Shown in pieces: positions 1 through 15,557 of a stretch of DNA of 15,557 nucleotides. The notes beneath the pieces are model-generated. The model ran no database searches and had not been told where the DNA came from. It was given only the letters and a program-made list of their open reading frames with translations. The translations under genes were made by a program, and so were the position numbers. The stretch lies in UHGV virus genome UHGV-0274902; one strand, written 5' to 3'. Every line of letters starts with the position of its first letter. Positions within the stretch are counted from its first letter, which is position 1. The stretch is from a virus.

Positions 1-160
1 AAAATGAAATGCCGACAATTACACAGAGGATCTTCGCCAGCGTTATGAGTTTGTCTGACATGCTTAATCCTCCCTTCACGATTTCAACGCAATGACCAGT
101 TTTGCCAGCCCATACAGCATCGGGGACACAGCAACACCGACATTGTCGGCATTTCATTTT
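1..160. repeat. Perfect 19-bp inverted repeat: 1-19 (aaaatgaaatgccgacaat) is the exact reverse complement of 142-160, spacer 20-141 (122 bp). The left arm is cut by the window start, so it may be longer
   Basis: Direct reverse-complement comparison in the sequence. A local near-palindrome ccgaca-t-tgtcgg (137-149) sits at the junction. Confidence 0.8.
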
Positions 161-242
161 CACTAATGCTGGTTGCTCTTTTTCTTTCCATGGCCTGGAT
201 GATGTTGTCTTCGTCGGGGCTGCTGGGGTGAACATAAACCGA

Positions 243-701
243 ATGCTTTCCGCGTTTATCGTTATTCTGCTGGTGGCCTGTGGAGCGCTGTGGATGGCAA
301 CAGACCATTACCGTGATAACGCGATTACCTACAAAGCGCAGCGCGATAACAAAGCCAGTGAACTGAAGCTGGCGAACGCAACCATTACTGATATGCAGGT
401 GCGCCAGCGCGATGTTGCTGCGCTCGATGCAAAATACTCGAGGGAATTAGCCGATGCGAGAGCTGAAAATGAAACTCTTCGCGCTGACGTTGCCGCTGGT
501 CGTAAGCGCCTGCGGATCAACGCCACCTGTCCAGGCTCCGTGCGTGAAGCCCCCACCACCTCCGGCGTGGATAATGCAACCGGCCCCAGACTGGCAGACG
601 CCGCTGAACGGGATTATTTCATCCTCAGAGAACGGTTGATGACAATGCAGAAGCAGCTGGAAGGGGCACAGCTATACATTCGTGAGCAATGCCTCAGATA
701 A
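243..701 (+). CDS. Rz: Spanin inner-membrane subunit (i-spanin), lambda Rz homolog
   Basis: Translation [65 protein letters not shown]... has an N-terminal TM segment then a periplasmic coiled-coil, closely matching lambda Rz as I recall it. Start may instead be GTG at 228, which overlaps the stop of an upstream frame as GTGA. Confidence 0.9.
454..639 (+). CDS. Rz1: Spanin outer-membrane lipoprotein (o-spanin), lambda Rz1 homolog, embedded in the +1 frame inside Rz
   Basis: [61 protein letters not shown] has a lipobox (LVVSAC) and the proline-rich [14 protein letters not shown] motif of lambda Rz1. AGGGA Shine-Dalgarno lies upstream of ATG 454. Confidence 0.9.
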
Positions 702-1036
702 AAACCGGCCAAGGATAATCCGCTGAAGATTTGCCGGTGGCTAAAGGGGCCAAGCCACCAATTTACGTAATTAGCCACAGAGATACAATATTTTAGTTTA
801 CTTATGTATTTCTGAAGCATGTCTTTGCGCAGTATCGTCGCCGTATTCCCACATGAACAGAGACCGCAGCCCTACCGGGAGACTCCTCTGCGCGAGTGTG
901 CGGGGATAATCAAAAACGATACACACCGGGGTTTACCGCGTTAACGGAGCGCGGCGTTGTCCCCTCATGGTCGCTGGTCCGGTGCGATGGTGGAAGAAAC
1001 TGGATTTTGTTGCAACTGACAATCATTATCATTTTG

Positions 1037-1230
1037 CCGGGTCCTTTCCGGCGATCCGGGCCGTTACGGGGCGGCGACCTCGCGGATTTTCACTATTTAT
1101 GAAAATTTTCCGGGATCCATGTCCGGTTTCTCTGCAAGTTAACCATATGAAAAATATAAAAACATGCTTTCCATGAACCGGACATGCGCAAAAAATAGAC
1201 ACTAAAACCGGACATGACCGGTTTTGTTGT
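1037..1230 (+). other. cos: cos packaging site: cosN 12-nt cohesive-end core GGGCGGCGACCT at 1069-1080, with lambda-like flanks and a downstream cosB-like region
   Basis: 1037-1110 (gggtcctttccggcgatccgggccgttacg|GGGCGGCGACCT|cgcggattttcactatttatgaaaattttccgg) is near-identical to the lambda right-end/left-end junction as I remember it. An A/T-rich stretch at 1141-1170 could be the IHF (I1) site. It lies directly upstream of nu1, as in lambda. Confidence 0.85.
1118..1216. repeat. Three copies of the 11-bp motif AACCGGACATG in cosB: inverted copy at 1118-1128 (CATGTCCGGTT), direct copies at 1176-1186 and 1206-1216. Candidate small-terminase binding sites (R3/R2/R1 analogues)
   Basis: Exact repeats seen in the sequence. 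One inverted copy, the A/T-rich block, then two direct copies mirrors the lambda cosB layout R3-I1-R2-R1, but the motif differs from the lambda R sites. Confidence 0.6.
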
Positions 1231-1263
1231 GATTGTGAGGTGAGAGTTTTTGCGAGGTGAGGA

Positions 1264-1773
1264 GTGGCTACGCAGACTGAAGTTGCCAGGCATTTAAGTC
1301 TGACCGATCGCCAGCTTCGCAGATTGCAGAAATTGCCGGGTGCCCCGATATCGAATAAGCGAGGGCAACTGGATCTGGATGCCTGGCGCGATTTTTACAT
1401 ATCGTATCTGAGAAGAAGTAAAAACGATGTGCCTGATGGCGATAGCGAAGACGACTATGAGGAGAAATTGCTTATTGCCAGATGGGAACTGACAGCAGAA
1501 CAGGCTGTTACACAGCAGTTAAAAAATGAGGTGTCAAAAGGAAAACTTATTGACACCGGGTTCTGTATTTTTGCCCTCAGCAAGCTGGCAATGGCGTTAT
1601 CCAGTACGCTTGATTCCATCCCTTTATCCATGCAGCGACAGTTTCCTGATTTAACACCGCGCCATCTTGACCATCTGAAAACCCTTATTGCGAAGGGGGC
1701 AAATCAGTGTGCGCGGGCGGGGGATAAATTACCGGATTTACTCGATGAATATATCAGAGCAACAACTGAATAA
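1264..1773 (+). CDS. nu1: Terminase small subunit, lambda Nu1 homolog
   Basis: GTG start preceded by GAGGTGAGGAG. N-terminal helix-turn-helix-like region, and the C-terminal part (IDTGFCIFALSKLAMALSSTLDSIPLSMQRQFPDLTPRHLDHLK...LPDLLDEYI) matches lambda gpNu1. Overlaps the start of A. Confidence 0.9.
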   Translation: MATQTEVARHLSLTDRQLRRLQKLPGAPISNKRGQLDLDAWRDFYISYLRRSKNDVPDGDSEDDYEEKLLIARWELTAEQAVTQQLKNEVSKGKLIDTGFCIFALSKLAMALSSTLDSIPLSMQRQFPDLTPRHLDHLKTLIAKGANQCARAGDKLPDLLDEYIRATTE

Positions 1774-3673
1774 TATGATGAGTGCTGTCACAACAGCATT
1801 ACAGCCCCTGATAAGGGCATTGCCGGTGACGCCAGTTGAATGGGCTGATCAAAATTATTATCTGCCTAAAGAATCTTCATATGGTGAGGGAGAATGGAAA
1901 ACGCTGCCGTTCCAGATCGCCATCATGAACAGCATGGGGAATGATCAGATCCGGACTGTTAATCTGATTAAATCTGCCCGTGTTGGCTATACAAAGATGT
2001 TGCTGGGAGTCGCCGGGTATTTTATTGAGCATAAATCCCGAAACAGTCTGCTTTTTCAGCCCACGGATTCTGCCGCTGAAGATTTTATGAAGTCTCACGT
2101 GGAGGCGACGATTCGCGATGTTCCCTGCCTGAAAAAACTTTCTCCCTGGCTGGGACGTAAACATCGTGATAATACCATCACGCTGAAACGCTTTTCATCG
2201 GGTGTGGGCTTCTGGTGCCTGGGCGGCGCTGCCGCCAAAAACTACCGTGAAAAATCCGTGGACGTGGTCTGCTATGACGAACTTTCCTCGTTCGAGCCGG
2301 ATGTCGAAAAAGAGGGCTCGCCAACCCTGCTGGGGGATAAGCGTATTGAGGGCTCGGTATGGCCAAAATCCATTCGCGGCTCGACGCCTAAAATAAAAGG
2401 CTCCTGCCAGATCGAAAAAGCGGCCAACGAGTCGGCGCATTTCATGCGTTTTTATGTGCCCTGCCCGCACTGTGGGGAGGCGCAGTATCTGAAATTTGGC
2501 GATGAGTCCACGCCTTTTGGCCTTAAATGGGAGAAGGACAGCCCCGAAAGCGTTTTCTACCTCTGTGAACATCATGGCTGCGTGATCCATCAGTCTGAGC
2601 TTGACCAGAGCAACGGGCGGTGGATCTGTGAAAACACGGGGATGTGGACCCGCGACGGTCTGACGTTTTTCAGCGCCGCGGATAATGAAATTCCGCCGCC
2701 GCGCTCCATCACATTCCATATCTGGACGGCGTACAGTCCGTTCACCACCTGGGTACAGATTGTCTATGACTGGCTGGATGCACTGAAAGATCCCAACGGC
2801 CTGAAAACCTTTGTGAACACCACGCTGGGCGAGACCTGGGAAGAGGCCGTGGGCGAAAAACTCGATCACCAGGTGCTGATGGATAAGGTTGTGCGTTACA
2901 CGGCTGCGGTGCCTTCCCGGGTGGTTTATCTGACGGCGGGCATTGACTCGCAGCGAAACCGTTTTGAGATGTATGTCTGGGGATGGGCTACGGGAGAGGA
3001 AGCCTTTCTGGTGGATAAAATCATCATTATGGGGCGTCCCGATGAGGAAGAGACGCTGTTACGTGTGGATGTGGCGATCAACAAAAAATACCGCCATGCA
3101 GACGGAACCGAAATGACCATTTCCCGTGTCTGCTGGGACACCGGGGGGATCGATGGCGAAATTGTCTATCAGAGGTCAAAAAAACACGGTGTTTTCCGGG
3201 TGCTGCCGGTAAAAGGTGCATCTGTTTATGGCAAGCCGGTGATCACCATGCCAAAAACCCGCAATCAGCGGGGCGTGTATCTGTGCGAAGTGGGGACGGA
3301 CACCGCAAAAGAAATTCTCTATGCCCGTATGAAAGCCGATCCCACGCCTGCGGATGAAGCCACGTCGTATGCCATCCGTTTTCCTGATGATCCGGAGATT
3401 TTTTCGCAGACAGAGGCGCAGCAACTGGTGGCGGAAGAGCTTGTGGAGAAGTGGGAAAAAGGAAAGATGCGTCTGCTGTGGGATAACAAAAAGCGGCGTA
3501 ACGAAGCGCTGGACTGCCTGGTGTATGCCTACGCGGCATTACGTGTGTCCGTGCAACGCTGGCAACTTGATCTGGCTGTACTGGCAAAATCCCGGGAAGA
3601 AGAGACGACCCGGCCAACCCTTAAAGAACTGGCAGCGAAGCTGTCCGGAGGAGTGAATGGTTACAGTCGCTGA
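1745..3673 (+). CDS. A: Terminase large subunit (ATPase/nuclease), lambda gpA homolog
   Basis: MNISEQQLNN...VEWADQNYYLPKESSYGEGEWKTLPFQ...KSARVGYTKMLLG...DELSSFEPDVEKEGSP...WTAYSPFTTWVQIV... aligns along its full length with lambda gpA. ATG at 1745 chosen by homology over the in-frame ATG at 1688. Confidence 0.95.
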   Translation: MNISEQQLNNMMSAVTTALQPLIRALPVTPVEWADQNYYLPKESSYGEGEWKTLPFQIAIMNSMGNDQIRTVNLIKSARVGYTKMLLGVAGYFIEHKSRNSLLFQPTDSAAEDFMKSHVEATIRDVPCLKKLSPWLGRKHRDNTITLKRFSSGVGFWCLGGAAAKNYREKSVDVVCYDELSSFEPDVEKEGSPTLLGDKRIEGSVWPKSIRGSTPKIKGSCQIEKAANESAHFMRFYVPCPHCGEAQYLKFGDESTPFGLKWEKDSPESVFYLCEHHGCVIHQSELDQSNGRWICENTGMWTRDGLTFFSAADNEIPPPRSITFHIWTAYSPFTTWVQIVYDWLDALKDPNGLKTFVNTTLGETWEEAVGEKLDHQVLMDKVVRYTAAVPSRVVYLTAGIDSQRNRFEMYVWGWATGEEAFLVDKIIIMGRPDEEETLLRVDVAINKKYRHADGTEMTISRVCWDTGGIDGEIVYQRSKKHGVFRVLPVKGASVYGKPVITMPKTRNQRGVYLCEVGTDTAKEILYARMKADPTPADEATSYAIRFPDDPEIFSQTEAQQLVAEELVEKWEKGKMRLLWDNKKRRNEALDCLVYAYAALRVSVQRWQLDLAVLAKSREEETTRPTLKELAAKLSGGVNGYSR

Positions 3674-3863
3674 ACTGCAGGCGCTGCGTCAGGCGCGCCT
3701 TGATTTATTAACCGGTAAACGGGTGGTGTCTGTCCAGAAAGATGGTCGCAGAATTGAATATACGGCGGCCTCTCTGGATGAGCTTAACCGGGCGATCAAT
3801 GATGCTGAGTTGGTACTGGGGACAACCCGCCGTCGCCGTCGTCCGCTGGGAGTGAGGTTATGA
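3657..3863 (+). CDS. W: Head-tail joining / head completion protein, lambda gpW homolog
   Basis: 68 aa; LTGKRVVSVQKDGRRIEYTAASLDEL matches lambda gpW. GGAGG Shine-Dalgarno; overlaps the end of A and the start of B. Confidence 0.9.
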   Translation: MVTVAELQALRQARLDLLTGKRVVSVQKDGRRIEYTAASLDELNRAINDAELVLGTTRRRRRPLGVRL

Positions 3864-5574
3864 AACGAAAGCCTGTCCTGATTGATGTGAACGGCGTTCC
3901 GCTTCGGGAGAGTCTCAGCTACAACGGGGGCGGTGCAGGATTTGGCGGGCAAATGGCAGAGTGGTTGCCACCCTCGCAGAGTGCCGATGCGGCCCTGCTG
4001 CCCGCGTTGCGTCTGGGGAATGCCCGTGCAGATGATCTGGTGCGCAATAACGGAATAGCGGCCAATGCGGTGGCCCTGCATAAGGATCACATTGTCGGGC
4101 ATATGTTTCTGATTAGCTACCGTCCGAACTGGCGCTGGCTGGGGATGCGGGAGACCGCGGCAAAAAGTTTTGTCGATGAGGTGGAGGCGGCCTGGTCAGA
4201 ATACGCAGAAGGGATGTTTGGTGAGATCGACGTGGAAGGGAAACGCACGTTTACGGAATTTATCCGTGAAGGTGTGGGCGTTCATGCGTTTAACGGCGAA
4301 ATCTTTGTGCAGCCGGTCTGGGATACGGAGAGCACGCAACTGTTTCGTACGCGTTTTAAAGCCGTGAGTCCGAAACGGGTGGACACGCCAGGACACGGTA
4401 TCGGGAACCGTTTTCTGCGGGCCGGGGTGGAGGTTGATCGATATGGCCGTGCCGTTGCGTACCATATCTGTGAGGATGATTTTCCTCGCTCCGGGAGTGG
4501 ACGATGGGAACGGATCCCGCGTGAACTTCCCACCGGGCGTCCGGCCATGCTGCATATTTTCGAGCCGGTGGAGGACGGGCAGACCCGTGGGGCCAACCAG
4601 TTTTACAGCGTCATGGAACGGCTGAAGATGCTCGATTCCCTGCAGGCAACACAGCTTCAGTCGGCCATTGTTAAAGCCATGTATGCAGCGACGATTGAAA
4701 GTGAACTTGATACCGAAAAGGCCTTTGAATATATCGCCGGCGCGCCACAGGAGCAGAAGGATAATCCGCTTATTAATATTCTGGAGAAGTTTTCCAGCTG
4801 GTATGACACGAATAACGTGACACTGGGCGGTGTCAAAATTCCGCACCTTTTCCCTGGTGATGATCTGAAACTACAGACTGCGCAGGATTCAGACAATGGA
4901 TTTTCTGCGCTTGAACAGGCGCTGCTGCGGTATATCGCCGCCGGTCTTGGCGTTTCCTACGAACAGTTGTCCCGTGATTACTCGAAGGTCAGTTATTCAA
5001 GTGCCCGCGCCTCCGCCAATGAGTCGTGGCGCTATTTTATGGGGCGGCGAAAATTTATTGCGGCCCGGCTGGCCACGCAGATGTTTTCCTGCTGGCTGGA
5101 AGAGGCACTTCTTCGGGGGATTATTCGTCCGCCACGGGCACGTTTTGATTTTTATCATCAGCACCAGCTCTTTCTCATACGTGCTCAGTCCGGCCTCAAT
5201 GCGCATCACTGATTCCTGGACTTCCTTGAGCCCGTCAATGGCCATTCTTCCGGCACCAATCCACTCTGCCCGTGACCAGGCTGATCGCGCCTGATAAAAA
5301 TCAAAACGTGCCCGTGGCGGACGAATAATCCCCCGAAGAAGTGCCTCTTCCAGCCAGCAGGAAAACATCTGTTGAGGCCGGACTGAGCACGTATGAGAAA
5401 GAGCTGGCGCTGATGGGCGAGGATTATCAGGACATTTTCCGCCAGCAGGTCAGGGAATCTGCTGAGCGGCAAAAAGCCGGACTCTCACGTCCGGTGTGGA
5501 TAGCGCAGGCGTATCAGCAGCAGATAGCGGAGAGTCGCAGGCCGGAAGAGGAGACAACACCACGTGAGACGTAA
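3860..5574 (+). pseudogene. B: Portal protein gene, lambda gpB homolog, disrupted by an internal inverted duplication. Collinear N-terminal part 3860-5155 (reading frame stops at 5212); C-terminal part resumes at 5374-5574
   Basis: 3860-5155 encodes a gpB-like sequence ending ...MFSCWLEEALLRGIIRPPRARFDFY, then runs into reverse-complemented sequence and stops. The next portal segment (QARSAWSRAEWIGAGRMAIDGLKEVQESVMRIE) is encoded on the minus strand at 5293-5195. The gpB-like C-terminus EAGLSTYEKELALMGEDYQDIFRQQVRE... is back on the + strand from 5374. Confidence 0.8.
5078..5415. repeat. Nested inverted-repeat complex inside B. IR1: 5078-5155 = reverse complement of 5294-5371 (78 bp, perfect). 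IR2: 5156-5199 = reverse complement of 5372-5415 (44 bp, one mismatch at 5163/5408). Unique core 5200-5293
   Basis: Base-by-base reverse-complement comparison. Net structure is A + rc(A-m-B') + B', where A-m-B' is the inferred collinear portal segment. Confidence 0.9.
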
Positions 5575-7069
5575 TCTTTCACACATTATTGCAGCAGCAT
5601 TCAATGAACCGCTGCTTCTGGAGCCCGCCTATGCGCGGGTTTTCTTTTGCGCGCTCGGGCGCGAGATGGGGGCAGCAAGTCTTTCGGTACCACAACAGCA
5701 GGTACAGCTTGATGCACCCGGAATGCTGGCTGAAACGGACGAGTACATGGCCGGAGGTAAACGACCGGCCCGTGTTTACCGGGTGGTGAACGGTATTGCT
5801 GTACTGCCGGTGACAGGCACGCTGGTGCACCGGCTGGGGGGTATGCGGCCATTTTCCGGAATGACAGGCTATGACGGCATTGTCGCCTGTCTTCAGCAGG
5901 CAATGGCGGATAGCCAGGTGCGGGGCGTACTGCTGGACATTGACAGTCCGGGCGGGCAGGCCGCCGGTGCGTTTGACTGTGCTGACATGATTTACCGCCT
6001 CCGTCAGCAGAAGCCGGTCTGGGCACTGTGCAATGACACGGCCTGTTCTGCAGCCATGCTGCTGGCGTCGGCCTGCTCCCGACGGCTGGTTACCCAGACA
6101 TCCCGTATCGGCTCCATTGGCGTGATGATGAGCCATGTCAGCTATGCCGGTCATCTGGCGCAGGCCGGTGTGGATATCACGCTGATTTACTCAGGGGCGC
6201 ACAAGGTGGATGGCAATCAGTTTGAAGCGTTGCCGGAAGAGGTTCGCCAGGACATGCAGCAGCGGATTGATGCGGCGCGCCGGATGTTTGCCGAAAAAGT
6301 GGCGATGTATACCGGTCTGTCTGTTGATGCAGTCACGGGAACAGAGGCCGCCGTTTTTGAAGGTCAGTCCGGCATTGAGGCCGGGCTGGCGGATGAATTA
6401 ATCAATGCGTCGGATGCCATCAGCGTGATGGCTGCGGCGCTGAACACACATGATACAGGAGGCACTATGCCGCAATTAACTGCAACGGAAGCTGCCGCGC
6501 AGGAGAACCAGCGAGTGATGGGGATCCTGACGTGTCAGGAAGCGAAAGGACGTGAACACCTTGCCACGATGCTGGCAGGACAACAGGGCATGAGCGTTGA
6601 ACAGGCCCGGGCGATTCTGACCGCGGCAGCACCACAGCAGCCGGTGGCATCCACGCAGAGTGAAGCCGATCGCATTATGGCGTGTGAAGAGGCTAAAGGT
6701 CGTGAACAACTGGCGGCAACGCTGGCGGCGATGCCGGAGATGACGGTGGAAAAAGCCCGCCCGATCCTGGCGGCTTCACCGCAGGCGGATGCCGGACCCT
6801 CACTCCGTGATCAGATTATGGCTCTGGATGAGGCAAAAGGGGCTGAGGCGCAGGCTGAAAAACTGGCGGCGTTTCCCGGAATGACGGTGGAGGCTGCCCG
6901 CGACATTCTCTCCTCATCGCCGGATAAAGCAGAACCGGTTTCTGCATCCACAACCGCCATGTTTGAACGCATCATGGCGAACCATTCACCGGCAGCCGTG
7001 CAGGGTGGCGTGTCACAGACGTCGGCAGACGGTGATGCGGACGTGAAAATGCTCATGGCCATGCCATGA
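5564..7069 (+). CDS. C: Prohead protease / minor capsid protein (S49 ClpP-like family), lambda gpC homolog, with an extended repeat-containing C-terminus
   Basis: GTG start with GAGGAG upstream. AAFNEPLLLEPAYARVFFCAL...GMTGYDGIV...LLDIDSPGGQAAGAFDCADMIY...KPVWALCNDTACSAA...RRLVTQTSRIGSIGVMMSH...ITLIYSGAHKVDGN matches lambda gpC. Confidence 0.9.
   Translation: MRRNLSHIIAAAFNEPLLLEPAYARVFFCALGREMGAASLSVPQQQVQLDAPGMLAETDEYMAGGKRPARVYRVVNGIAVLPVTGTLVHRLGGMRPFSGMTGYDGIVACLQQAMADSQVRGVLLDIDSPGGQAAGAFDCADMIYRLRQQKPVWALCNDTACSAAMLLASACSRRLVTQTSRIGSIGVMMSHVSYAGHLAQAGVDITLIYSGAHKVDGNQFEALPEEVRQDMQQRIDAARRMFAEKVAMYTGLSVDAVTGTEAAVFEGQSGIEAGLADELINASDAISVMAAALNTHDTGGTMPQLTATEAAAQENQRVMGILTCQEAKGREHLATMLAGQQGMSVEQARAILTAAAPQQPVASTQSEADRIMACEEAKGREQLAATLAAMPEMTVEKARPILAASPQADAGPSLRDQIMALDEAKGAEAQAEKLAAFPGMTVEAARDILSSSPDKAEPVSASTTAMFERIMANHSPAAVQGGVSQTSADGDADVKMLMAMP
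6467..7069 (+). CDS. nu3: Scaffolding protein, lambda Nu3 analogue, translated in frame from an internal start within C
   Basis: Internal ATG 6467 preceded by AGGAGG (6457-6462), same frame as C. This mirrors the lambda nu3 start, which as I recall lies at a GGAGG-containing SGGRM inside C (here TGGTM). Product carries the tandem IMxxxEAKGxE...GMTVExAR modules. Confidence 0.65.
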   Translation: MPQLTATEAAAQENQRVMGILTCQEAKGREHLATMLAGQQGMSVEQARAILTAAAPQQPVASTQSEADRIMACEEAKGREQLAATLAAMPEMTVEKARPILAASPQADAGPSLRDQIMALDEAKGAEAQAEKLAAFPGMTVEAARDILSSSPDKAEPVSASTTAMFERIMANHSPAAVQGGVSQTSADGDADVKMLMAMP

Positions 7070-7105
7070 AGTCAGTGCTGACCATCAATATGAGGTTTTA
7101 ACAAA

Positions 7106-7453
7106 ATGGTGACGAAAACCATCACTGAACAACGTGCGGAAGTACGTATTTTTGCCGGTAATGATCCGGCTCATACCGCCACAGGCAGCAGCGGGATTTC
7201 TCAGGCAACACCGGCACTGACGCCCCTGATGCTGGATGAAGCCAGCGGGAAACTGGTGGTCTGGGACGGACAGAAAGCCGGTAGTGCGGCTGGCATACTG
7301 GTACTGCCGCTTGAAGGCACAGAGACGGTGCTGACGTATTACAAGTCGGGGACCTTTGCGACGGAGGCAATCCGCTGGCCTGAAAGAGTGGATGAACACA
7401 AAAAGGCCAACGCCTTTGTCGGCACAGCCCTGAGTCACGCGGCGCTGCCGTAA
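7106..7453 (+). CDS. D: Head decoration protein, lambda gpD homolog
   Basis: DPAHTATG...TPLMLDEASGKLVVWDG...GILVLPLEG...TYYKSGTF matches lambda gpD. Confidence 0.92.
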   Translation: MVTKTITEQRAEVRIFAGNDPAHTATGSSGISQATPALTPLMLDEASGKLVVWDGQKAGSAAGILVLPLEGTETVLTYYKSGTFATEAIRWPERVDEHKKANAFVGTALSHAALP

Positions 7454-7510: not shown

Positions 7511-8539
7511 ATGGGATTGTTTACGACCCGCCAGTTACTCGGTTATACCGAACAAAAAGTTAAATTCCGTGCGCTGTTTCTGGAGCTGTTTTTCCGCCGT
7601 ACGGTGAATTTCCACACCGAAGAGGTGATGCTGGACAAAATTACCGGAAAAACGCCGGTGGCAGCCTATGTCTCCCCGGTTGTTGAAGGAAAAGTGCTTC
7701 GCCATCGCGGTGGTGAAACCCGCGTGTTACGTCCGGGCTACGTCAAGCCCAAACACGAATTTAATTACCAGCAGGCGGTTGAGCGCCTTCCTGGTGAAGA
7801 TCCGGCTCAGCTGAATGACCCGGCCTACCGTCGTCTGCGTATCATTACCGATAACCTCAAACAGGAAGAGCACGCCATTGTCCAGGTGGAAGAAATGCAG
7901 GCGGTGAATGCCGTGCTGTATGGCAAATACACCATGGAAGGGGATCAGTTTGATACTGTCGAGGTGGATTTCGGGCGCTCTGAAGGAAATAACATTGAGC
8001 AGGCTGACGGTAAAAAATGGTCTGAGCAGGACCGTGATACGTTTGATCCGACGCATGATATTGACCTCTACTGCGATCAGGCCAGCGGCCTTGTGAATAT
8101 CGCCATTATGGACGGTACGGTCTGGCGTCTGCTGAATGGCTTTAAGCTGTTCCGCGAAAAACTGGATACCCGTCGCGGCTCAAATTCACAACTCGAAACG
8201 GCAGTGAAAGACCTGGGGGCGGTGGTGTCCTTCAAGGGGTATTACGGCGATCTGGCCATTGTGGTGGCGAAAACGTCTTATGTGGCAGAGGACGGTACCG
8301 AAAAACGTTATCTGCCGGAGGGCACACTGGTCCTGGGGAATACGGCAGCAGAGGGCATTCGTTGCTATGGTGCCATTCAGGATGCGCAGGCGTTGTCCGA
8401 AGGTGTGGTGGCCTCTTCCCGTTATCCGAAACACTGGCTGACTGTGGGCGATCCGGCCCGTGAATTCACCATGACGCAGTCCGCTCCGCTGATGGTGCTG
8501 CCGGATCCGGATGAGTTTGTGGTGGTACAGGTGAAATAA
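7511..8539 (+). CDS. E: Major capsid protein, lambda gpE homolog
   Basis: 342 aa; PGYVKPKHE, DPAYRRLRII, VEEMQAV, KLDTRRGSNS.LETAVKDLG, TVGDPAREFTMTQSAPLM match lambda gpE along the full length. Confidence 0.95.
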   Translation: MGLFTTRQLLGYTEQKVKFRALFLELFFRRTVNFHTEEVMLDKITGKTPVAAYVSPVVEGKVLRHRGGETRVLRPGYVKPKHEFNYQQAVERLPGEDPAQLNDPAYRRLRIITDNLKQEEHAIVQVEEMQAVNAVLYGKYTMEGDQFDTVEVDFGRSEGNNIEQADGKKWSEQDRDTFDPTHDIDLYCDQASGLVNIAIMDGTVWRLLNGFKLFREKLDTRRGSNSQLETAVKDLGAVVSFKGYYGDLAIVVAKTSYVAEDGTEKRYLPEGTLVLGNTAAEGIRCYGAIQDAQALSEGVVASSRYPKHWLTVGDPAREFTMTQSAPLMVLPDPDEFVVVQVK

Positions 8540-8546
8540 TCCGTGA

Positions 8547-8576
8547 GCGGGGGCGAAATGCCCCCGTGTCTTTTTT
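8547..8576 (+). terminator. GC-rich hairpin followed by a T6 run immediately downstream of E (intrinsic-terminator-like; possibly an mRNA-stabilising stem-loop)
   Basis: Stem 8548-8554 / 8560-8566 (cgggggc / gcccccg), loop gaaat, then gtc + tttttt (8571-8576). Confidence 0.45.
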
Positions 8577-8590
8577 CACAGGAGGCTGAG

Positions 8591-8974
8591 ATGGCAACAA
8601 AAGAAGAAAATCTGAATCGTCTTCGTCAACTGGCTGGCCTGCTGGGGCGCGAGGCGGATATGTCGGGGAGTGCTGCGGATATTGCTCAACGTGTGTCTGA
8701 GTGGGAAGAGGAGCTTGCTGTTTCCCCGGAGGGCATTATGCACTCTGATGAGAGCGGGGCTGATCAAAATCACACAGACGATGGTGAGCAGTTGAACAAC
8801 ACGGATGCTCCGGATGATGTTAAAGCCGTCCGGGTACGGAAGTGCCTGCAAGTAATGGGGTATTGCCCGGAGACAGGTCGTCCCGTTGAGCTGGCGTTAC
8901 GGGGTATGCGTGTTCTGGTGCCATCATCACTGGCAACGGCCATGATACAGCACGGAACGGCTGAATATGCGTGA
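8591..8974 (+). CDS. FI: DNA packaging / head assembly protein, lambda gpFI homolog
   Basis: ATG 8591 preceded by GGAGG. Acidic central region and C-terminal ...VELALRGMRVLVPSSLATAM... resemble lambda gpFI. Position between E and FII matches. Confidence 0.8.
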   Translation: MATKEENLNRLRQLAGLLGREADMSGSAADIAQRVSEWEEELAVSPEGIMHSDESGADQNHTDDGEQLNNTDAPDDVKAVRVRKCLQVMGYCPETGRPVELALRGMRVLVPSSLATAMIQHGTAEYA

Positions 8975-9320
8975 TTTTCAGAATGCCTTTGATGCTGCCC
9001 TCGCCGGGGTGGACAGTACGATCGTTGAAGTGATGGGGATCCGTGCGCAGTTCACCTCGGGGGCACAGTGTGGCAGCGAAGTTCAGGGGGTTTTTGACGA
9101 TCCGGAGTCGCTGGGGTTTGCCGGTGGCGGGGTCCGTATTGAAGGAAGCAGCCCGTCATTATTTGTGCGGACGGATACGGTTCGTGCCGTGCGGCGTGGT
9201 GACACGCTGACCATTAATGGTGAGATATTCTGGGTGGATCGTGTTTCTCCGGATGACGGGGGCAGCTGTTATCTCTGGCTCAACCGTGGTCAACCACCCG
9301 CAGTTAACCGGCGACGATAA
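8967..9320 (+). CDS. FII: Head-tail connector protein, lambda gpFII homolog
   Basis: 117 aa; GVFDDPE, VRIEGSSPSLFVRTD, RRGDTLTI, FWVDRVSPDDGGSC.LWL.RG.PPAVNRRR are near-identical to lambda gpFII. Confidence 0.95.
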   Translation: MRDFQNAFDAALAGVDSTIVEVMGIRAQFTSGAQCGSEVQGVFDDPESLGFAGGGVRIEGSSPSLFVRTDTVRAVRRGDTLTINGEIFWVDRVSPDDGGSCYLWLNRGQPPAVNRRR

Positions 9321-9335
9321 ACGCAGGGTGAAATT

Positions 9336-9869
9336 ATGGCGATAAAAGGGCTTGATCAGGCGATTGACAATCTGAGCCGGGTTCGTAAAAACGCCATTCC
9401 GGCGGCTTCAGCAATGGCCATTAACCGCGTGGCCACAACGGCGATTAATCAGTCTTCATCACAGGTTGCCCGGGAGACAAAGGTTCGCCGGAAACTGGTT
9501 AAGGAACGGTCCAGACTGAAACGGGCGACGGTCAGAAATCCGAATGCCAGAATTATCGTTAACCGCGGTGATCTCCCTGTGATTAAGCTGGGGATCAGGA
9601 TGCTGGGGCGTCGCCCGAACAGCATACTTAAAGCCGGTCAGCATCGGTATCAGCGGGCATTTATTCAGCGATTAAAAAATGGTCGCTGGCATGTCATGCA
9701 GCGTGTGGCCGGGAAAAACCGTTACCCCATTGATGTGGTGAAAATCCCGATGGCGGCCCCACTGAAACAGGCATTTGATGAGAATGTTGACCGTATCCGG
9801 CGTGAACGCCTGCCTAAAGAACTGGCATACGCGCTGAAACAACAACTGAGGATTGCGATAAAACGATGA
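9336..9869 (+). CDS. Z: Minor tail protein (tail terminator region), lambda gpZ homolog
   Basis: MAIKGLDQAIDNLSRV...AMAINRVA...SQVARETKVRRKLVKERSRLKRATV...LKNGRWHVMQRVAGKNRYPIDVVKIPMA...RIRRERLPKEL matches lambda gpZ. Confidence 0.93.
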   Translation: MAIKGLDQAIDNLSRVRKNAIPAASAMAINRVATTAINQSSSQVARETKVRRKLVKERSRLKRATVRNPNARIIVNRGDLPVIKLGIRMLGRRPNSILKAGQHRYQRAFIQRLKNGRWHVMQRVAGKNRYPIDVVKIPMAAPLKQAFDENVDRIRRERLPKELAYALKQQLRIAIKR

Positions 9870-10261
9870 AACACACTGACATTCGTGCCGCAGTGCTGGA
9901 TGCACTCGAGCAGCATGAACACGGGGCGACGCTGTTTGATGGTCGCCCCGTTGTTTTTGACGAAGAGGATTTTCCTGCGATCGCGGTTTATCTGACGGAT
10001 GCAGAGTATACCGGTGAAGAGCTGGATGCAGATACCTGGCGGGCCACACTGCATATTGAGGTGTTTTTACCGGCACAGGTACCTGATTCGGAGCTCGATC
10101 AGTGGATGGAAAGCCGGATTTATCCGGCGATGACTGCGATCCCTGCACTGGCAGGACTGATTACCACGATGGTTACGCAGGGCTATGAGTATCGTCGTGA
10201 TGACGATATGGCGTTATGGAGCTCTGCGGATCTGACTTATTCCATTACATACGAGATGTGA
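9866..10261 (+). CDS. U: Tail terminator protein, lambda gpU homolog
   Basis: 131 aa; [17 protein letters not shown]...[15 protein letters not shown]...[25 protein letters not shown]...RRDDD...[13 protein letters not shown] matches lambda gpU. Confidence 0.95.
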
Positions 10262-10268
10262 GGACGAT

Positions 10269-11021
10269 ATGGCAACACCAAATCCCCTGGAGCCGGTAAA
10301 AGGTGCCGGTACCACTCTGTGGGTTTACAACGGCAAGGGTGATGCTTATGCAAACCCGTTGTCAGACGATGACTGGCAGCGACTGGCTAAGGTGAAGGAT
10401 CTGACGCCGGGCGAGATGACGGCAGAACCCTACGATGATAACTACCTGGATGATGAAGACGCGGACTGGACCGCGACCGGGCAGGGGCAGAAGTCTGCAG
10501 GAGATACCAGTTTTACGCTGGCCTGGAAACCGGGAGAAGATGGTCAGAAAGGGCTTATAGGCTGGTTTGAAAGCGGGGATGTGCGGGCCTATAAAATCCG
10601 TTTTCCGAACGGCACGGTGGATGTGTTTCGTGGCTGGGTCAGCAGTATCGGTAAGGCCGTGACGGCGAAAGAAGTGATCACCCGCACGGTGAAAGTGACC
10701 AACGTGGGCAAACCTTCCGTGGCGGAAGAACGCAGCAAAATTACGCCGGTCACTGCAATTAAGGTGACACCGACATCCGGTACCGTGGAAAAAGGAAAAA
10801 CAACCACCCTGACGGTTTCTTTTGAGCCGGAAAGTGCAACCGACAAGACGTTCAGAGCGGTTTCCGCCGATCCGTCAACGGGAACCATTGCTGTGAAAGA
10901 TATGGTGATCACTGTGACGGGGATTAAGGCCGGAAAAGTGAGTATCCCCGTGATTTCCGGTAATGGTCAGTTTGCCACGGTAGCTGAAGTCACCGTTACT
11001 GAAGCGGGCGCTGCAGGGTAA
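10269..11021 (+). CDS. V: Major tail tube protein, lambda gpV homolog, with a C-terminal Ig-like domain
   Basis: 250 aa; [75 protein letters not shown] match lambda gpV. Confidence 0.95.
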
Positions 11022-11034
11022 ACGGAGGTAATAC

Positions 11035-11466
11035 ATGTTTCTGAAAACAGAACAATTTGAATATAACGGTGTATCCGTCATGCTTTCTGAGCTGTCTGCG
11101 CTGCAGCGTATTGAGCATCTTGCCCTCCTGAAACGGCGGGCAGAAGAGGCTGAAGCCAGCGGCAACCTGCAGGTGAGTGTGGAAGATCTTGTCAGAACCG
11201 GCGCGTTTCTGGTGGCGATGTCCCTGTGGCATAACCATCCGGAGAAAGTGCAGCTGCTGTCAATGAATGAGGCCGTGATGCAGATCGAACAGGATGTGCT
11301 GACGACCTGGCCGGCTGATGCCATTGCCCGGGCGGAAGAGGTGGTGTTACGTCTGTCCGGGATGAGCGGGGCTGTTCATGCGGATACTGACAGCACCGAA
11401 GTGGCGAAAAATAACGCGCTTACTGATGATGATTTTTCTGCGGGAAAGTTTTCGACGGCGAGCTGA
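11035..11466 (+). CDS. G: Tail assembly chaperone, lambda gpG homolog
   Basis: MFLKTEQFEYNGVSVMLSELSALQRIEHLALLKR...GAFLVAMSLWHNHPEK...SMNEAV.QIEQDVLTTWP matches lambda gpG. Ends just after the slippery site. Confidence 0.93.
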   Translation: MFLKTEQFEYNGVSVMLSELSALQRIEHLALLKRRAEEAEASGNLQVSVEDLVRTGAFLVAMSLWHNHPEKVQLLSMNEAVMQIEQDVLTTWPADAIARAEEVVLRLSGMSGAVHADTDSTEVAKNNALTDDDFSAGKFSTAS

Positions 11467-11906
11467 ATTTTGCCCTCAGACTGGCGCGTGAGATGGGGAG
11501 GCCTGACTGGCGCGCCATGCTTGCCGGGATGACATCCACCGAATATGCCGACTGGCGACATTTTTACCGCACGCATTATTTTCAGGATACCCAACTGGAT
11601 ATGCATTTTTCCGGGCTGATGTACGCCGTACTCAGCCTGTTTTTTTGCGATCCGGATATGCATCCCTCGGATTTCAGTCTGCTGGCTCCCCGGCGAGAGG
11701 AAGCGCAGACGGAGATGCCGGATGAGGAAGACATGCTGATGCAGAAAGCGGCAGGACTTGCCGGAGGCGTCCGGTTCGGTGGGGAGGGAGGGGGCGATAT
11801 TTCACCTTCTGCAGATGTGGTGGATGTCAGCGAGGATGATGTTGCATTAATGATGGCTTCAGCGGGGATTTCCGGAGGTGTGAGATATGTCCCAGCCGGT
11901 TGGTGA
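11035..11906 (+). CDS. T: Tail assembly chaperone fusion (gpG-T) made by a programmed -1 ribosomal frameshift at the G_GGA_AAG heptamer (11442-11448). The T-specific part is 11448-11906
   Basis: Slippery heptamer GGGAAAG in the G zero frame (gcg GGA AAG). After a -1 shift the frame reads ...ELNFALRLAREMGRPDWRAMLAGMTSTEYADW..., matching lambda gpT. The T frame has no independent start near the junction. Confidence 0.85.
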
Positions 11907-14460
11907 TCTTGTTATTGACCTGAGTCTGGATGCTGTCCGTTTCGATGAGCAGATGAGCCGGGTAAGGCGTCATTTTTCAGGACTGGATACCGACGCCAGA
12001 AAAACCGCCGGTGCCGTTGAGCAGAGTCTGAACCGTCAGGCGCTGGCCGCACAAAAAGCCGGGATTTCCGTCGGGCAGTATAAAGCAGCCATGCGTACCC
12101 TGCCCGCACAGTTTACGGATATCGCCACGCAGCTTGCCGGTGGTCAGAATCCCTGGCTCATCCTGCTGCAACAGGGCGGTCAGGTGAAGGACTCCTTCGG
12201 CGGGATGATCCCCATGTTCAGGGGGCTTGCCGGTGCGATCACCCTGCCGATGGTCGGGGTCACCTCGCTGGCGGTGGCGACAGGTGCGCTGGCGTACGCC
12301 TGGTACCAGGGGGATTCCACGCTTTCAGAATTTAATAAAACGCTGGTCCTTTCCGGCAATCAGGCCGGACTGACTGCCGATCGTATGCTGACGCTCTCAA
12401 GAGCCGGGCAGGCAGCAGGGCTGACGTTTAACCAGGCGAGAGAGTCACTGGCAGCCCTGGTGAATGCCGGTGTGCGTGGTGGTGAACAGTTTGATGCCAT
12501 TAACCAGAGTGTCGCGCGTTTTGCGTCTGCATCCGGTGTGGAGGTGGATAAAGTCGCTGAAGCCTTCGGGAAGCTGACCACTGACCCGACGTCGGGACTG
12601 ATGGCGATGGCGCGCCAGTTCCGTAACGTGACGGCAGAGCAGATTGCGTATGTTGCACAACTGCAGCGTTCCGGAGACGAGGCCGGGGCCTTACAGGCGG
12701 CGAACGATATCGCCACGAAAGGCTTTGATGAGCAGACCCGTCGCCTGAAAGAAAACATGGGAACACTGGAGACTTGGGCGGATAAAACAGGGAAGGCATT
12801 CAAATCGATGTGGGATGCCATTCTGGATATCGGTCGTCCGGAATCCTCAGCGGATATGCTCGCCAGTGCGCAGAAGGCATTTGATGAGGCGGATAAAAAA
12901 TGGCAGTGGTACCAGAGCCGGAGCCAGCGCCGCGGTAAAACCTCCTCTTTCCGGGCCAACCTTCAGGGCGCATGGGATGACCGGGAAAATGCCCGTCTGG
13001 GTCTGGCAGCGGCAACGCTGCAGTCGGATATGGAAAAAGCCGGTGAACTGGCGGCAAGGGACAGGGCTGAGCGTGAGTCGTCACAGCTGAAGTATACCGG
13101 AGAGGCGCAGAAGGCGTATGAGCGCCTGCTGACGCCACTGGAGAAATATACCGCCCGGCAGGAAGAGCTGAATAAGGCCCTGAAAGACGGGAAAATCCTG
13201 CAGGCGGATTACAACACGCTGATGGCGTCGGCAAAAAAGGATTATGAATCGACGCAGAAAAAGCCGTCCGGTGTGAAGGTGTCTGCCGGTGAGCGCCAGG
13301 AAGACCGGGCGCATGCAGCCATGCTGGCGCTTGAAACCGAGCTCCTGACGCTGGAAAAGCATGCCGGTGCGAATGAAAAAATCAGCCAGCAGCGCCGGGA
13401 TTTATGGAAAGCGGAAAATCAGTATGTGGTCCTGAAAGAGGCCGCCACGAAACGGCAGTTATCTGAGCAGGAAAAATCCCTGCTGGCCCATGAGAAAGAG
13501 ACGCTGGAGTACAAACGCCAGCTGGCTGACCTGGGCGACAAGGTTGAACACCAGAAACGGCTGAATGAGCTGGCACAGCAGGCGGCGCGGTTTGAACAGC
13601 AGCAGAGCGCGAAGCAGGCCGCCATCAGCGCAAAAGCCCGCGGCCTCACCGACCGTCAGGCGCAGCGGGAGTCGGAAGAGCAGCGCCTTCGTGACGTGTA
13701 CGGTGATAATCCGGATGCGCTGGCGAAGGCCACATCTGCACTGAAGAACACCTGGTCTGCGGAGGAGCAGCTTCGTGGAAGCTGGATGGCGGGTCTGAAG
13801 TCCGGCTGGGGCGAGTGGGCGGAAAGTGCGACGGACAGTTTTTCGCAGGTTAAAAGCGCGGCCACGCAGACCTTTGACGGTATTGCACAGAATATGGCAG
13901 CGATGCTGACCGGCAGCGAACAGAACTGGCGTGGTTTCACCCGTTCCGTGCTCTCCATGCTGACAGAGATTTTTCTGAAGCAGGCGATGGTGGGGATTGT
14001 CGGGCGTATCGGCAGCGCCATTGGTGGTGCTTTCGGTGGTGGCGCATCCGCTTCCACGGGGACGGCTATTCAGGCTGCGGCGGCGAACTTCCATTTCGCG
14101 ACCGGGGGATTTACGGGAACCGGTGGCAAATATGAGCCAGCGGGGATTGTCCACCGCGGGGAGTTTGTCTTCACGAAGGAGGCAACCAGCCGGATTGGTG
14201 TCGGGAACCTGTACCGCCTGATGCGGGGCTATGCGGAAGGGGGGTATGTGGGTGCTGCCGGAGGTCCGGCGCAGATGCGGCGGGCGGAAGGTATTAATTT
14301 TAATCAGAACAATCACGTGGTGATTCAGAACGACGGCATCAACGGACAGGCCGGGCCGCAGCTGATGAAAGCGGTGTATGAGATGGCCCGTAAAGGTGCG
14401 CAGGATGAGCTCCGGCTGCAGTTGCGTGATGGCGGTCTGTTATCGGGGAGCGGGCGATGA
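11887..14460 (+). CDS. H: Tail tape measure protein, lambda gpH homolog
   Basis: 857 aa; near full-length match to lambda gpH (VGDLVIDLSLDA.RFDEQM.RVRRHFSG, QYKAAMR.LPAQFTD.ATQLAGGQ.PWLILLQQGGQVKDSFGGMIPMFRGL, LYRLMRGYA.GGYVG and others). Confidence 0.95.
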   Translation: MSQPVGDLVIDLSLDAVRFDEQMSRVRRHFSGLDTDARKTAGAVEQSLNRQALAAQKAGISVGQYKAAMRTLPAQFTDIATQLAGGQNPWLILLQQGGQVKDSFGGMIPMFRGLAGAITLPMVGVTSLAVATGALAYAWYQGDSTLSEFNKTLVLSGNQAGLTADRMLTLSRAGQAAGLTFNQARESLAALVNAGVRGGEQFDAINQSVARFASASGVEVDKVAEAFGKLTTDPTSGLMAMARQFRNVTAEQIAYVAQLQRSGDEAGALQAANDIATKGFDEQTRRLKENMGTLETWADKTGKAFKSMWDAILDIGRPESSADMLASAQKAFDEADKKWQWYQSRSQRRGKTSSFRANLQGAWDDRENARLGLAAATLQSDMEKAGELAARDRAERESSQLKYTGEAQKAYERLLTPLEKYTARQEELNKALKDGKILQADYNTLMASAKKDYESTQKKPSGVKVSAGERQEDRAHAAMLALETELLTLEKHAGANEKISQQRRDLWKAENQYVVLKEAATKRQLSEQEKSLLAHEKETLEYKRQLADLGDKVEHQKRLNELAQQAARFEQQQSAKQAAISAKARGLTDRQAQRESEEQRLRDVYGDNPDALAKATSALKNTWSAEEQLRGSWMAGLKSGWGEWAESATDSFSQVKSAATQTFDGIAQNMAAMLTGSEQNWRGFTRSVLSMLTEIFLKQAMVGIVGRIGSAIGGAFGGGASASTGTAIQAAAANFHFATGGFTGTGGKYEPAGIVHRGEFVFTKEATSRIGVGNLYRLMRGYAEGGYVGAAGGPAQMRRAEGINFNQNNHVVIQNDGINGQAGPQLMKAVYEMARKGAQDELRLQLRDGGLLSGSGR

Positions 14461-14786
14461 AAACCTTTCGCTGGAAAGTGAAACCGGATATGGAGGTGAA
14501 CTCGCAGCCATCGGTGCGTGAAGTGCGTTTTGGTGACGGGTACTCACAGCGTATGGCGGCAGGGCTGAATGCTGACCTGAAAACATACCGGGTGATGCTT
14601 TCCGTGACCCGGGAGGAGGCCCGTCATCTGGAAGCGTTCCTGGCAGAGCACGGTGGCTGGAAGGCATTTTTGTGGAAGCCACCCTATGCATACCGGCAGA
14701 TAAAGGTGACCTGTGCCGGGTGGTCTGCGCGGGTCGGGATGTTGCGCGTTGAGTTCAGCGCGGAGTTTAAGCAGGTGGTGAACTGA
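14457..14786 (+). CDS. M: Minor tail protein, lambda gpM homolog
   Basis: 109 aa; MKTFRWKVKP.M.V.S.PSVR.VRFGDGYSQR...LKTY.V.LSV.REEA..LE.FL.EHGGWK.FLW.PPY..RQIKVTCA.WS.RV.MLRVEFSAEF.QVVN is near-identical in pattern to lambda gpM. Confidence 0.95.
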   Translation: MKTFRWKVKPDMEVNSQPSVREVRFGDGYSQRMAAGLNADLKTYRVMLSVTREEARHLEAFLAEHGGWKAFLWKPPYAYRQIKVTCAGWSARVGMLRVEFSAEFKQVVN

Positions 14787-15472
14787 TGCAGGATATTCAC
14801 GAAGAAAGTCTGAACGAGTCGGTTAAATCAGAGCAGTCACCGCGGGTGGTGCTCTGGGAAATCGACCTGACGGTACAGGGCGGTGAGCGGTATTTTTTCT
14901 GCAATGAGCTGAATGAAAAAGGGGAGCCGGTCACCTGGCAGGGGCGGCAATATCAGGCGTACCCGATTGAGGGCAGCGGCTTTGAGATGAACGGAAAGGG
15001 CAGCAGTGCCAGACCGTTGCTGACGGTGTCCAATCTGTTTGGTCTTGTCACCGGAATGGCGGAGGATTTGCAGAGCCTGGTGGGGGCCACGGTGGTCCGC
15101 CGCCGGGTGTATGCCCGTTTTCTGGATGCGGTGAATTTCGTTGCGGGCAATCCGGAAGCGGACCCGGAGCAGGAGCTGAGTGACCGCTGGGTGGTGGAGC
15201 AGATGTCGCAGCTGACAGCCATGACGGCCTCGTTTGTGCTGGCCACACCGACCGAGACGGACGGGGCGCTGTTTCCCGGTCGTATCATGCTGGCGAACAC
15301 CTGTATGTGGACCTACCGCTCTGATGAGTGTGGTTACACGGGCGGGGCTGTGGCGGATGAGTTCGATAAACCCACCACGGATATCCGTAAGGACAGATGC
15401 AGCAAGTGCATGCGCGGGTGTGAACTGCGCAGGAATGTCGGCAATTCCACATACAGGTGTTCGCCAGCATGA
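14786..15472 (+). CDS. L: Minor tail protein, lambda gpL homolog, with an aberrant 3' end. gpL-like sequence runs to 15445, then the frame enters an inverted copy of 15200-15311 and stops at 15472
   Basis: MQDIHEESLNE...VVLWEIDLT..GGERYFFCNE.NEKGEPVTWQGRQYQ.YPI.GSGFE.NGKG.S.RP.LTVSNL.G.VTGMAED.QSLVG.TVVRR.VYARFLDAVNFV.GN matches lambda gpL through ...RNVGN. The last ~12 residues expected from lambda are replaced by STYRCSPA, which is encoded by the fold-back copy. Confidence 0.85.
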   Translation: MQDIHEESLNESVKSEQSPRVVLWEIDLTVQGGERYFFCNELNEKGEPVTWQGRQYQAYPIEGSGFEMNGKGSSARPLLTVSNLFGLVTGMAEDLQSLVGATVVRRRVYARFLDAVNFVAGNPEADPEQELSDRWVVEQMSQLTAMTASFVLATPTETDGALFPGRIMLANTCMWTYRSDECGYTGGAVADEFDKPTTDIRKDRCSKCMRGCELRRNVGNSTYRCSPA

Positions 15473-15557
15473 TACGACCGGGAAACAGCGCCCCGTCCGT
15501 CTCGGTCGGTGTGGCCAGCACAAACGAGGCCGTCATGGCTGTCAGCTGCGACATCTG
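15200..15557. repeat. Perfect inverted repeat at least 112 bp long: 15446-15557 is the exact reverse complement of 15200-15311, spacer 15312-15445 (134 bp). Cut by the window end
   Basis: Base-by-base reverse-complement comparison. The minus strand of 15446-15554 re-encodes the gpL segment MSQLTAMTASFVLATPTETDGALFPGRIMLANTCMW. Confidence 0.9.

Follow-up and report, generated by a model that had tools for sequence, protein, structure and literature searches.

Did the inverted duplications in this prophage sequence arise in a phage, or did they enter it during sequence production? The window, that is, the whole 15,557-nt stretch of DNA that was analyzed, is the late region of an ordinary lambda-like E. 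coli prophage, comprising lysis genes, cos, terminase, and head and tail genes to L. Its gene content was restricted to lysis, packaging, head and tail genes, and no recombinase gene was found in the window.

Inverted repeats and junctions

Inverted repeats were present at the left edge, in the portal gene and in the L gene, with arms of 19, 80, 44 and 112 nt (the 19- and 112-nt edge arms are clipped by the window ends and are not true arm lengths) and spacers of 122, 134, 172 and 134 nt. When the window was shuffled 100 times and searched for perfect inverted repeats with spacers of up to 300 nt, the longest per shuffle had a mean length of 10.9 nt and a maximum of 14 nt; the inverted repeats of the window far exceed chance. 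A sequence-only reading of this locus had described the repeats at these three sites as perfect or near-perfect, and this was confirmed, with a single mismatch in the 44-nt portal pair. Its spacers of 122, 172 and 134 nt also held, but the 138 nt that it gave for the portal is actually 134 nt. It had counted three fold-backs; there are indeed three sites, but alignment to relatives resolved four junctions (J0 to J3, Table 1), and the portal structure is not one fold-back.

At every junction the sequence continued on the opposite strand 122-172 nt away (offsets of 122, 136, 172 and 135 nt). Microhomology at J0, J1, J2 and J3 was 0, 2, 0 and 1 nt, no more than expected by chance and similar to random blunt joins (mean 0.67). 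No shared motif or restriction site was found at the eight ancestral breakpoints. The 8-mer TGTCGGCA occurred close to both colinear ends, at chance level once all breakpoint pairs were counted.

The left block carries, in reverse-complement form, the ancestral segment immediately upstream of window positions 142-160, with which that segment overlaps. In the portal gene, the structure is A.rc(A-s-B).B, in which a 216-bp block has been inverted in place, replacing its 92-bp core, and the 80-bp and 44-bp ends of the block are additionally retained in forward orientation. The portal ORF departs from the native sequence at J1 and reaches a stop codon 18 codons on, and L gains a stop 8 codons past J3. 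The portal and L genes are thus both broken. The earlier caution that the locus should not be accepted at face value as an intact functional phage is upheld.

Table 1. Coordinates of genes, repeats and junctions in the window
Feature	Position	Strand	Description
Left inverted block	1-141	-	100% match to L001 1519..1379; truncated by window start
Left arms	1-19 vs 142-160		19 nt, perfect; spacer 122 (inverted spacer 20-141)
Junction J0	141/142		Inverted block down to ancestral 1379 joined to forward sequence from ancestral 1501; microhomology 0 nt
Colinear lambda-like late region	142-5157	+	1765-5157 100% identical to L004
Small hypothetical ORF remnant			Within colinear region 142-5157
Rz-type lysis gene	243-701		Within colinear region
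cosN	1069-1080
Nu1	1264-1773		Within colinear region
Terminase A	1745-3673		Within colinear region
W	3657-3863		Within colinear region
Portal up to codon 432			Closes colinear region 142-5157
Truncated portal ORF	3860-5212	+	450 aa vs 530 aa in relatives
Arm A, forward copy	5078-5157	+	80 nt, perfect complement of 5292-5371; spacer 134
Junction J1	5157/5158		2-nt ambiguity
Inverted portal block	5158-5371	-	Reverse complement of ancestral L004 3314-3527/3529
rc(B)	5158-5199		Part of inverted portal block; private G>A at 5163
Inverted core	5200-5291		92 nt; part of inverted portal block
rc(A)	5292-5371		Part of inverted portal block
Second portal repeat	5156-5199 vs 5372-5415		44 nt, one mismatch at 5163; spacer 172
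Junction J2	5371/5372		0 nt
Arm B, forward copy	5372-5415	+	44 nt; start of stranded portal C-terminal remnant 5372-5574
Colinear region	5372-15446	+	Portal tail, then C/Nu3, D, E, FI, FII, Z, U, V, G, T, H, M, to L codon 220; 0 mismatches to L004
L ORF with foreign tail	14786-15472	+	228 aa vs 232 aa in relatives
Right arm, forward copy	15200-15311	+	112 nt, inside gene L
Junction J3	15446/15447		1-nt ambiguity; preceded by 134-nt forward spacer 15312-15445
Right inverted block	15446-15557	-	Perfect reverse complement of 15200-15311; truncated by window end

Comparison with relatives and sequence collections

An independent metagenome contig, L004, was aligned to window positions 1765-5157 and 5372-15446 with 0 mismatches in 13,468 nt; positions 1-1764 lie outside its coverage. 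L004 encodes an intact portal (530 aa) and an intact L (232 aa). Base 5163, 6 nt from J1, is the sole base difference within the L004-covered stretch.

The junctions were spanned in none of 5,426 complete E. coli genomes, among which 1,676-1,857 records had homologous DNA (0 of 1676 for J0 and 0 of 1810 for J3; no genome for J1 or J2), and in no phage record. The exact 35-mers across J0, J1, J2 and J3 were all absent from IMG/VR, and that of J1, the one scanned in these collections, was absent from GTDB representative genomes and JGI metagenome contigs. The portal and L proteins created by the junctions had no exact match among approximately 15 billion predicted proteins, nor any in a gene-position index. 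Twelve related loci, totaling about 180 kb and drawn from SPAdes-style, MEGAHIT-style, Logan and NCBI assemblies with about ten contig ends included, had none of these inverted repeats. Short-read contigs of the same prophage region were 11-20 kb and started and stopped near the same places, so the window is of typical length. These comparisons support the reading of the three structures as derived and private to the window sequence.

Origin of the joins

The fold-back joins are probably an artefact of sequencing or assembly and not phage biology. They share one geometry, are unique to the window, and interrupt genes in a sequence whose remainder is identical to an intact relative; for private, gene-breaking joins of this kind, a shared cause outside evolution is the best reading. 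Four homology-free junctions in 15.5 kb without point divergence are not what evolution of a lineage yields. In addition, both window ends fall within fold-back arms, and the essential portal gene is broken yet there are no signs of decay elsewhere. The earlier proposal that a shared cause is likelier than three independent natural events is therefore upheld, the structures being derived, private, of the same geometry and set against an otherwise identical relative.

In the scenario that we favor, four strand-flip joins would have been introduced into a normal prophage sequence during its production, each by a jump of 122-172 nt followed by continuation on the opposite strand. The source may have been chimeric DNA molecules or reads from amplification or library preparation or, alternatively, a mis-oriented piece added at an assembly, extension or gap-filling step. 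J0 lies 141 nt from the window start and J3 111 nt from the window end, which suggests that the window represents an entire contig and that its extension would have stopped soon after meeting its own reverse complement. The remaining two joins would bracket a single 216-nt piece in the portal gene. We infer that the window is a whole contig and that the joins lie outside the heritable phage genome.

Several observations count against an artefact. Chance-level microhomology is a poor fit to polymerase-primed chimeras, the geometry at the portal matches the natural template-switch type 3-1-4-2 exactly (PMC5453318), and no single simple process accounts for all four joins. Error-prone synthesis in vivo could alternatively account for the mutation that lies 6 nt from a junction.

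Specific production errors were also considered and rejected. A routine assembler by-product for this region is contradicted by the 12 related loci, which lack fold-backs across several assemblers and with contig ends included. The logic by which a De Bruijn assembler stops at a visited k-mer predicts a terminal arm of k-1, and arms of 19 and 112 nt fit no single k. A gap-spanning or end-extending piece pasted in mis-oriented and untrimmed would account for the portal, with overlaps of 80 and 44 nt, and for the left end, with one of 19 nt, but fails at the right end. Concatenation of mis-joined paired-end reads (R1+R2) gives coordinates other than those seen.

In products of multiple displacement amplification (MDA), the commonest class of artefact is an inverted chimera with its breakpoints close together; 85% of chimeras are inverted and about one occurs per 22 kb (Lasken and Stockwell 2007, PMC1855051). 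The same class is the commonest in long-read libraries (PMC12338684, PMC13141652). It is possible, though unlikely, that the joins represent inverted chimeras of the classical MDA (phi29) kind that were fixed in the assembly because little template DNA was available, as with single cells or low-input viromes. Each of the four joins is an inversion within one molecule whose two breakpoints lie under 200 nt from each other, well within the 10 kb that delimits inverted segments of the same locus in MDA chimeras; jump-ahead and jump-back geometries are both represented, and the density of four junctions in 15.5 kb differs from the published frequency by less than an order of magnitude. However, the 3' end of an MDA chimera is expected to prime on complementary sequence of 2 nt or more, as it did in 93.5% of the proximal inverted chimeras studied (Lasken and Stockwell 2007, PMC1855051), and only 1 of our 4 junctions has this (P of 1 or fewer of 4, approximately 0.001). 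The typical MDA chimera that the sequence-only reading had offered as an option is thus unsupported. Long-read hairpin artefacts, which it had also named, are unsupported in the form of whole-read foldbacks, which leave the internal 216-bp block unexplained. The four offsets agree with the definition of a long-read foldback used by Breakinator (PMC12338684), which also places the breakpoint near mid-read, with mirrored halves; the portal block of only 216 nt does not suit a whole-read palindrome, and the edge arms are clipped by the window ends.

It appears improbable that the joins are real and formed in vivo very recently, by short-range inter-strand template switching as the prophage or induced phage replicated, leaving a newly defective prophage. 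Inverted repeats with spacers greater than 100 nt are tolerated in E. coli, which counts in favor of such an origin. The portal fits the four-point model exactly, with 3=6437 < 1=6516 < 4=6609 < 2=6652 in L001 coordinates. Events of this type leave an inverted spacer between two inverted repeats, and in natural events point 4 never comes before point 1, a rule that the portal also follows. At the edges, the junctions agree with the types that are most frequent in nature (3-2-1-4 at the right; 1-3-4-2 or 3-1-4-2 at the left), and a point mutation 6 nt from J1 is in keeping with those reported close to replicative junctions. However, three events with four junctions and zero substitutions in the other 13.5 kb compared to an independent sample would require an extraordinary local burst. 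The joins occur in none of thousands of related prophages, priming microhomology is absent, the 216-nt copied fragment far exceeds the short events described for the model, and nothing in this reading explains why two of the events fall at the two window ends. Template-switch correction at quasi-palindromes (Ripley/Lovett type), raised earlier as an option, was rejected: relatives, the otherwise identical L004 among them, lack an inverted repeat at every one of these sites, and the junction contexts lack complementarity, the observed microhomology being that of chance. More improbable still would be one in vivo burst of homology-independent switching that copied fragments greater than 200 nt and made long perfect inverted repeats de novo in essential genes, possibly through a hairpin-capped 15-kb intermediate.

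That the joins are functional inverted repeats, whether an invertible switch, a regulatory hairpin or a coding palindrome, has next to no likelihood: long perfect inverted repeats that overlap genes do exist here, and coding palindromes are natural in Nematomorpha mitochondria (PMC6649704), but the absence of the repeats from every relative effectively refutes this reading, an essential gene is destroyed, and the arms are not in-frame coding. Invertons have conserved flanking repeats, both orientations and a nearby recombinase, whereas these repeats are missing from relatives and the window has no recombinase gene. Palindromes of the Nematomorpha type have both arms in one ORF, whereas here the stops fall 18 codons after J1 and 8 after J3.

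Implications

Should the joins be an artefact, as is most likely, it would be wrong to score the contig as a defective prophage, and the truncated portal and altered L protein are not real proteins. Comparing a contig with its nearest intact relative and measuring the microhomology at its junctions is a check that can be reused. If the joins were formed in vivo, they would be an unusually clean and fresh case of large template-switch events making long hairpins in bacterial coding DNA.

Comparison with known systems

In Drosophila, staggered double-strand breaks have been proposed to give inversions flanked by inverted duplications. The portal structure is similar, as a segment cut with 80-nt and 44-nt staggers, inverted and filled in. 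It differs in having a core of 92 bp compared to kilobases to megabases. To our knowledge, E. coli does not have the end-joining pathway that the staggered-break model assumes.

In ODIRA, template switching at both forks gives hairpin-capped linear DNA (PMC10766183). Both window ends are likewise jump-back folds on the + strand, with the geometry of a 15.3-kb dumbbell whose duplex spans L001 1501-16589 and whose loops are 122 and 135 nt. However, ODIRA is eukaryotic, depends on origins and uses pre-existing short inverted repeats, and no such repeats are present at the window sites.

The portal rearrangement has exactly the topology of a 3-1-4-2 template switch (Loytynoja and Goldman 2017, PMC5453318), with points in the order 3<1<4<2; in place of the stretch between points 1 and 4 stands the reverse complement of the stretch between points 2 and 3, which overlaps both 1 and 4. 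Four-point events as described are mostly tens of bp, single, and set amid ordinary divergence (PMC5453318), whereas the window has a 216-nt fragment, two more junctions in 15.5 kb and no other divergence.

Compared to fold-back artefacts, the window differs in that its junctions are without microhomology, its loops are native sequence and not adapter, and its internal case is a short 216-nt block and not a whole-read palindrome. As in MDA inverted chimeras and long-read foldbacks (Heinz, Meyerson and Li 2025), its joins connect opposite strands of the same locus at breakpoints less than 200 nt apart, and as in fold-back artefacts, several occur in about 15 kb, private to one sequence and at contig-like ends.

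Gene content and inverted repeats

The window, 15,557 bases long, is the late region of a lambda-like E. coli prophage; gene names and order follow the best-matching genomes as annotated in RefSeq, together with gene calls on related contigs. Over 1,500 complete E. coli genomes have a locus that covers 80% or more of the window, and the underlying phage is an ordinary, widely distributed lambda-like prophage. The uncut cosN inside the window indicates that the DNA is in prophage, circular or concatemer form and does not represent virion ends. The slippery heptamer at 11442-11448, at the end of gene G, is presumably the G/GT tail-chaperone frameshift site expected in lambda-like phages.

Length differences were observed among twelve related loci (L001-L012). 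Gene Z (9336-9869) carries a 42-bp polymorphism among close relatives near 9704-9726, encoding 177 aa in the window and L002-L007 and 191 aa in L001 and L008-L012. L009 (Logan ERR1790821_54) is missing approximately 550 bp at its positions 2400-2420, corresponding to window 3662-4214 (gpW and the portal N-terminus; gene calls of 655 aa for terminase and 412 aa for portal); this relative has its own, separate deletion or was misassembled there.

The inverted repeats that a sequence-only reading had described at the left edge, portal gene and L were present on checking the sequence, with the portal spacer given as 138 bp corrected to 134. In shuffled versions of the window (n = 100), perfect inverted repeats whose spacer was at most 300 nt reached 10.9 nt on average at their longest, with a maximum of 14 nt. 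None of the left-edge, portal or L repeats was found in the twelve related loci (approximately 180 kb in total). The tape measure gene contains a 21-nt near-palindrome (12290-12319) that relatives share; it is native and has no relation to the fold-backs.

Features of the window, inverted repeats and pieces aligned to the reference locus L001
Feature	Window position	Second arm or L001 position	Remarks
Small hypothetical ORF	left edge		split by rearrangement
Rz-type lysis gene	243-701
cosN	1069-1080		exact lambda sequence GGGCGGCGACCT, uncut
Nu1	1264-1773
Terminase A	1745-3673
W	between terminase A and portal B
Portal B	start 3860
C/Nu3	5564-7069
D, E, FI, FII, Z, U, V	in this order after C/Nu3
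G and T	after V		usual GGGAAAG slip site at 11442
Tape measure H	11887-14460
M	between H and L
L	start 14786
Left-edge repeat	1-19	142-160	perfect; spacer 122
Portal repeat 1	5078-5157	5292-5371	80 nt, perfect; spacer 134
Portal repeat 2	5156-5199	5372-5415	44 nt, one mismatch at 5163; spacer 172
L-gene repeat	15200-15311	15446-15557	112 nt, perfect; spacer 134
Aligned piece	1-141	1519..1379	reversed
Aligned piece	142-5157	1501-6516	forward
Aligned piece	5156-5371	6652..6437	reversed
Aligned piece	5372-15446	6609-16724	forward
Aligned piece	15446-15557	16589..16478	reversed

Structure of the rearrangement

Alignment to the related loci (two complete genomes and ten contigs), with L001 supplying ancestral coordinates, split the window into five pieces of alternating orientation and therefore revealed four fold-back junctions, J0 (141/142), J1 (5157/5158), J2 (5371/5372) and J3 (15446/15447), with jumps to the opposite strand of 122, 136, 172 and 135 nt, respectively. 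The portal site is more than one fold-back: J1 and J2 belong to a 216-bp block (arm A, core s, arm B) inverted in place. Because A-s-B replaces only the 92-bp core s, the 80-bp A and 44-bp B are each doubled in opposite orientations. The window ends cut the edge arms after 19 and 112 nt, so these lengths are lower bounds.

At codon 432 the portal ORF runs off its native sequence, and a stop follows 18 codons further on (450 aa versus 530), leaving the final 67 codons stranded at 5372-5574. L lacks its last 12 codons and has gained 8 foreign ones (228 aa versus 232).

Comparison with independent sequences

An independent metagenome contig, L004 (ENA ERZ27272572, k141_15350), was 100.000% identical to window 1765-5157 plus 5372-15446 (0 of 13,468 nt mismatched, a figure that excludes 1-1764, which lies outside the contig), and its portal and L genes are intact. 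Within the stretch covered by L004 (1765-15446) the sole base difference is at 5163, a G>A that lies in the inverted copy, 6 nt from J1. This base is in no E. coli record, as each of the best matches to the block retains one mismatch; it could be an error in a chimeric molecule or read, or result from error-prone synthesis at a template switch. Junction-spanning queries yielded no record with at least 80% coverage among 1,857, 1,676 and 1,810 E. coli records with homologous DNA, and no phage record at that coverage. Exact 35-mers over all four junctions were absent from IMG/VR, the J1 35-mer (the one scanned there) was absent from GTDB representative genomes and JGI metagenome contigs, and the junction-made proteins were found neither in the gene-position index nor among approximately 15 billion predicted proteins.

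Origin of the junctions

Microhomology at J0 through J3 was 0, 2, 0 and 1 nt. Random blunt fold-backs simulated in the reconstructed ancestor had a mean of 0.67 nt, with at least 2 nt in 16%; by this comparison the joins are homology-free. No restriction site or other motif common to the eight ancestral breakpoints was found. The 8-mer TGTCGGCA occurs at 144-151 and 15436-15443, set in by 2 nt from the left colinear end and by 3 nt from the right. This is probably chance, since the full set of breakpoint pairs should yield about 0.3 such matches.

The joins are likely to be an artefact of sequence production, the reading we favor most. Four homology-free junctions accompany essentially no further divergence from an independent sample, they are wholly absent from thousands of related prophages, and they destroy an essential gene in a sequence otherwise free of decay. 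Both window ends also lie just inside fold-back arms, the pattern that would be seen were the window a complete contig that doubled back on its own sequence and then ceased to extend. Its size and end positions resemble short-read contigs of the same prophage region, which in other assemblies start at about window -165 to +613 and in many cases stop at 14,799-15,217. Furthermore, the dominant class of artefact in amplified (PMC1855051) and long-read (PMC12338684, PMC13141652) libraries is the inverted chimera whose breakpoints lie close together. However, the absence of microhomology suits polymerase-primed chimeras poorly, other assemblies of the region lack fold-backs, contig ends included, and no one simple process accounts for all four joins. 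The portal structure would be obtained if a 216-nt piece over a 92-nt gap were inserted the wrong way with its 80-nt and 44-nt overlaps untrimmed. The left end also fits this description (a 141-nt piece with a 19-nt overlap with the end). It fails at the right end, where the inverted piece terminates 135 nt inside the colinear end.

Within the artefact reading, chimeras formed during MDA, as had been suggested, are an unlikely source, our confidences in these readings not being meant to sum to one. In MDA, Lasken and Stockwell (PMC1855051) counted approximately one chimera in every 22 kb; 85% were inverted, and priming complementarity of 2 nt or more was present in 93.5% of the proximal inverted ones. 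Only one of the four junctions here reaches 2 nt (P ~0.001 under the MDA rate), which weakens the case for typical MDA chimeras.

A very recent in vivo burst of template switching, making the joins real, seems quite improbable. It has the right geometry and could account for the mutation beside J1, but it needs three events in 15.5 kb without other change and offers no account of why they coincide with the window ends. Switching at quasi-palindromes in particular requires a pre-existing imperfect inverted repeat; the ancestral sequence, as represented by relatives, has none at the junction sites, which counts against that proposal. The junction sequences thus do not support the specific mechanisms named in the sequence-only reading, while its general conclusion, a shared, non-evolutionary cause and a locus not to be read at face value, stands. 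The repeats are absent from relatives, the reading frame is disrupted and the window lacks a recombinase; a functional role as an inverton, regulatory hairpin or coding palindrome is therefore effectively excluded. The feature is most probably non-biological.

Relation to known structures

Viewed on the + strand, both window ends are "jump-back" folds, the same geometry as that of a hairpin-capped 15.3-kb fragment. The portal event is formally the "3-1-4-2" type of the four-point template-switch model (Loytynoja and Goldman 2017, PMC5453318), in which two new inverted repeats enclose an inverted spacer; this type accounted for 1% of the human-chimp events.
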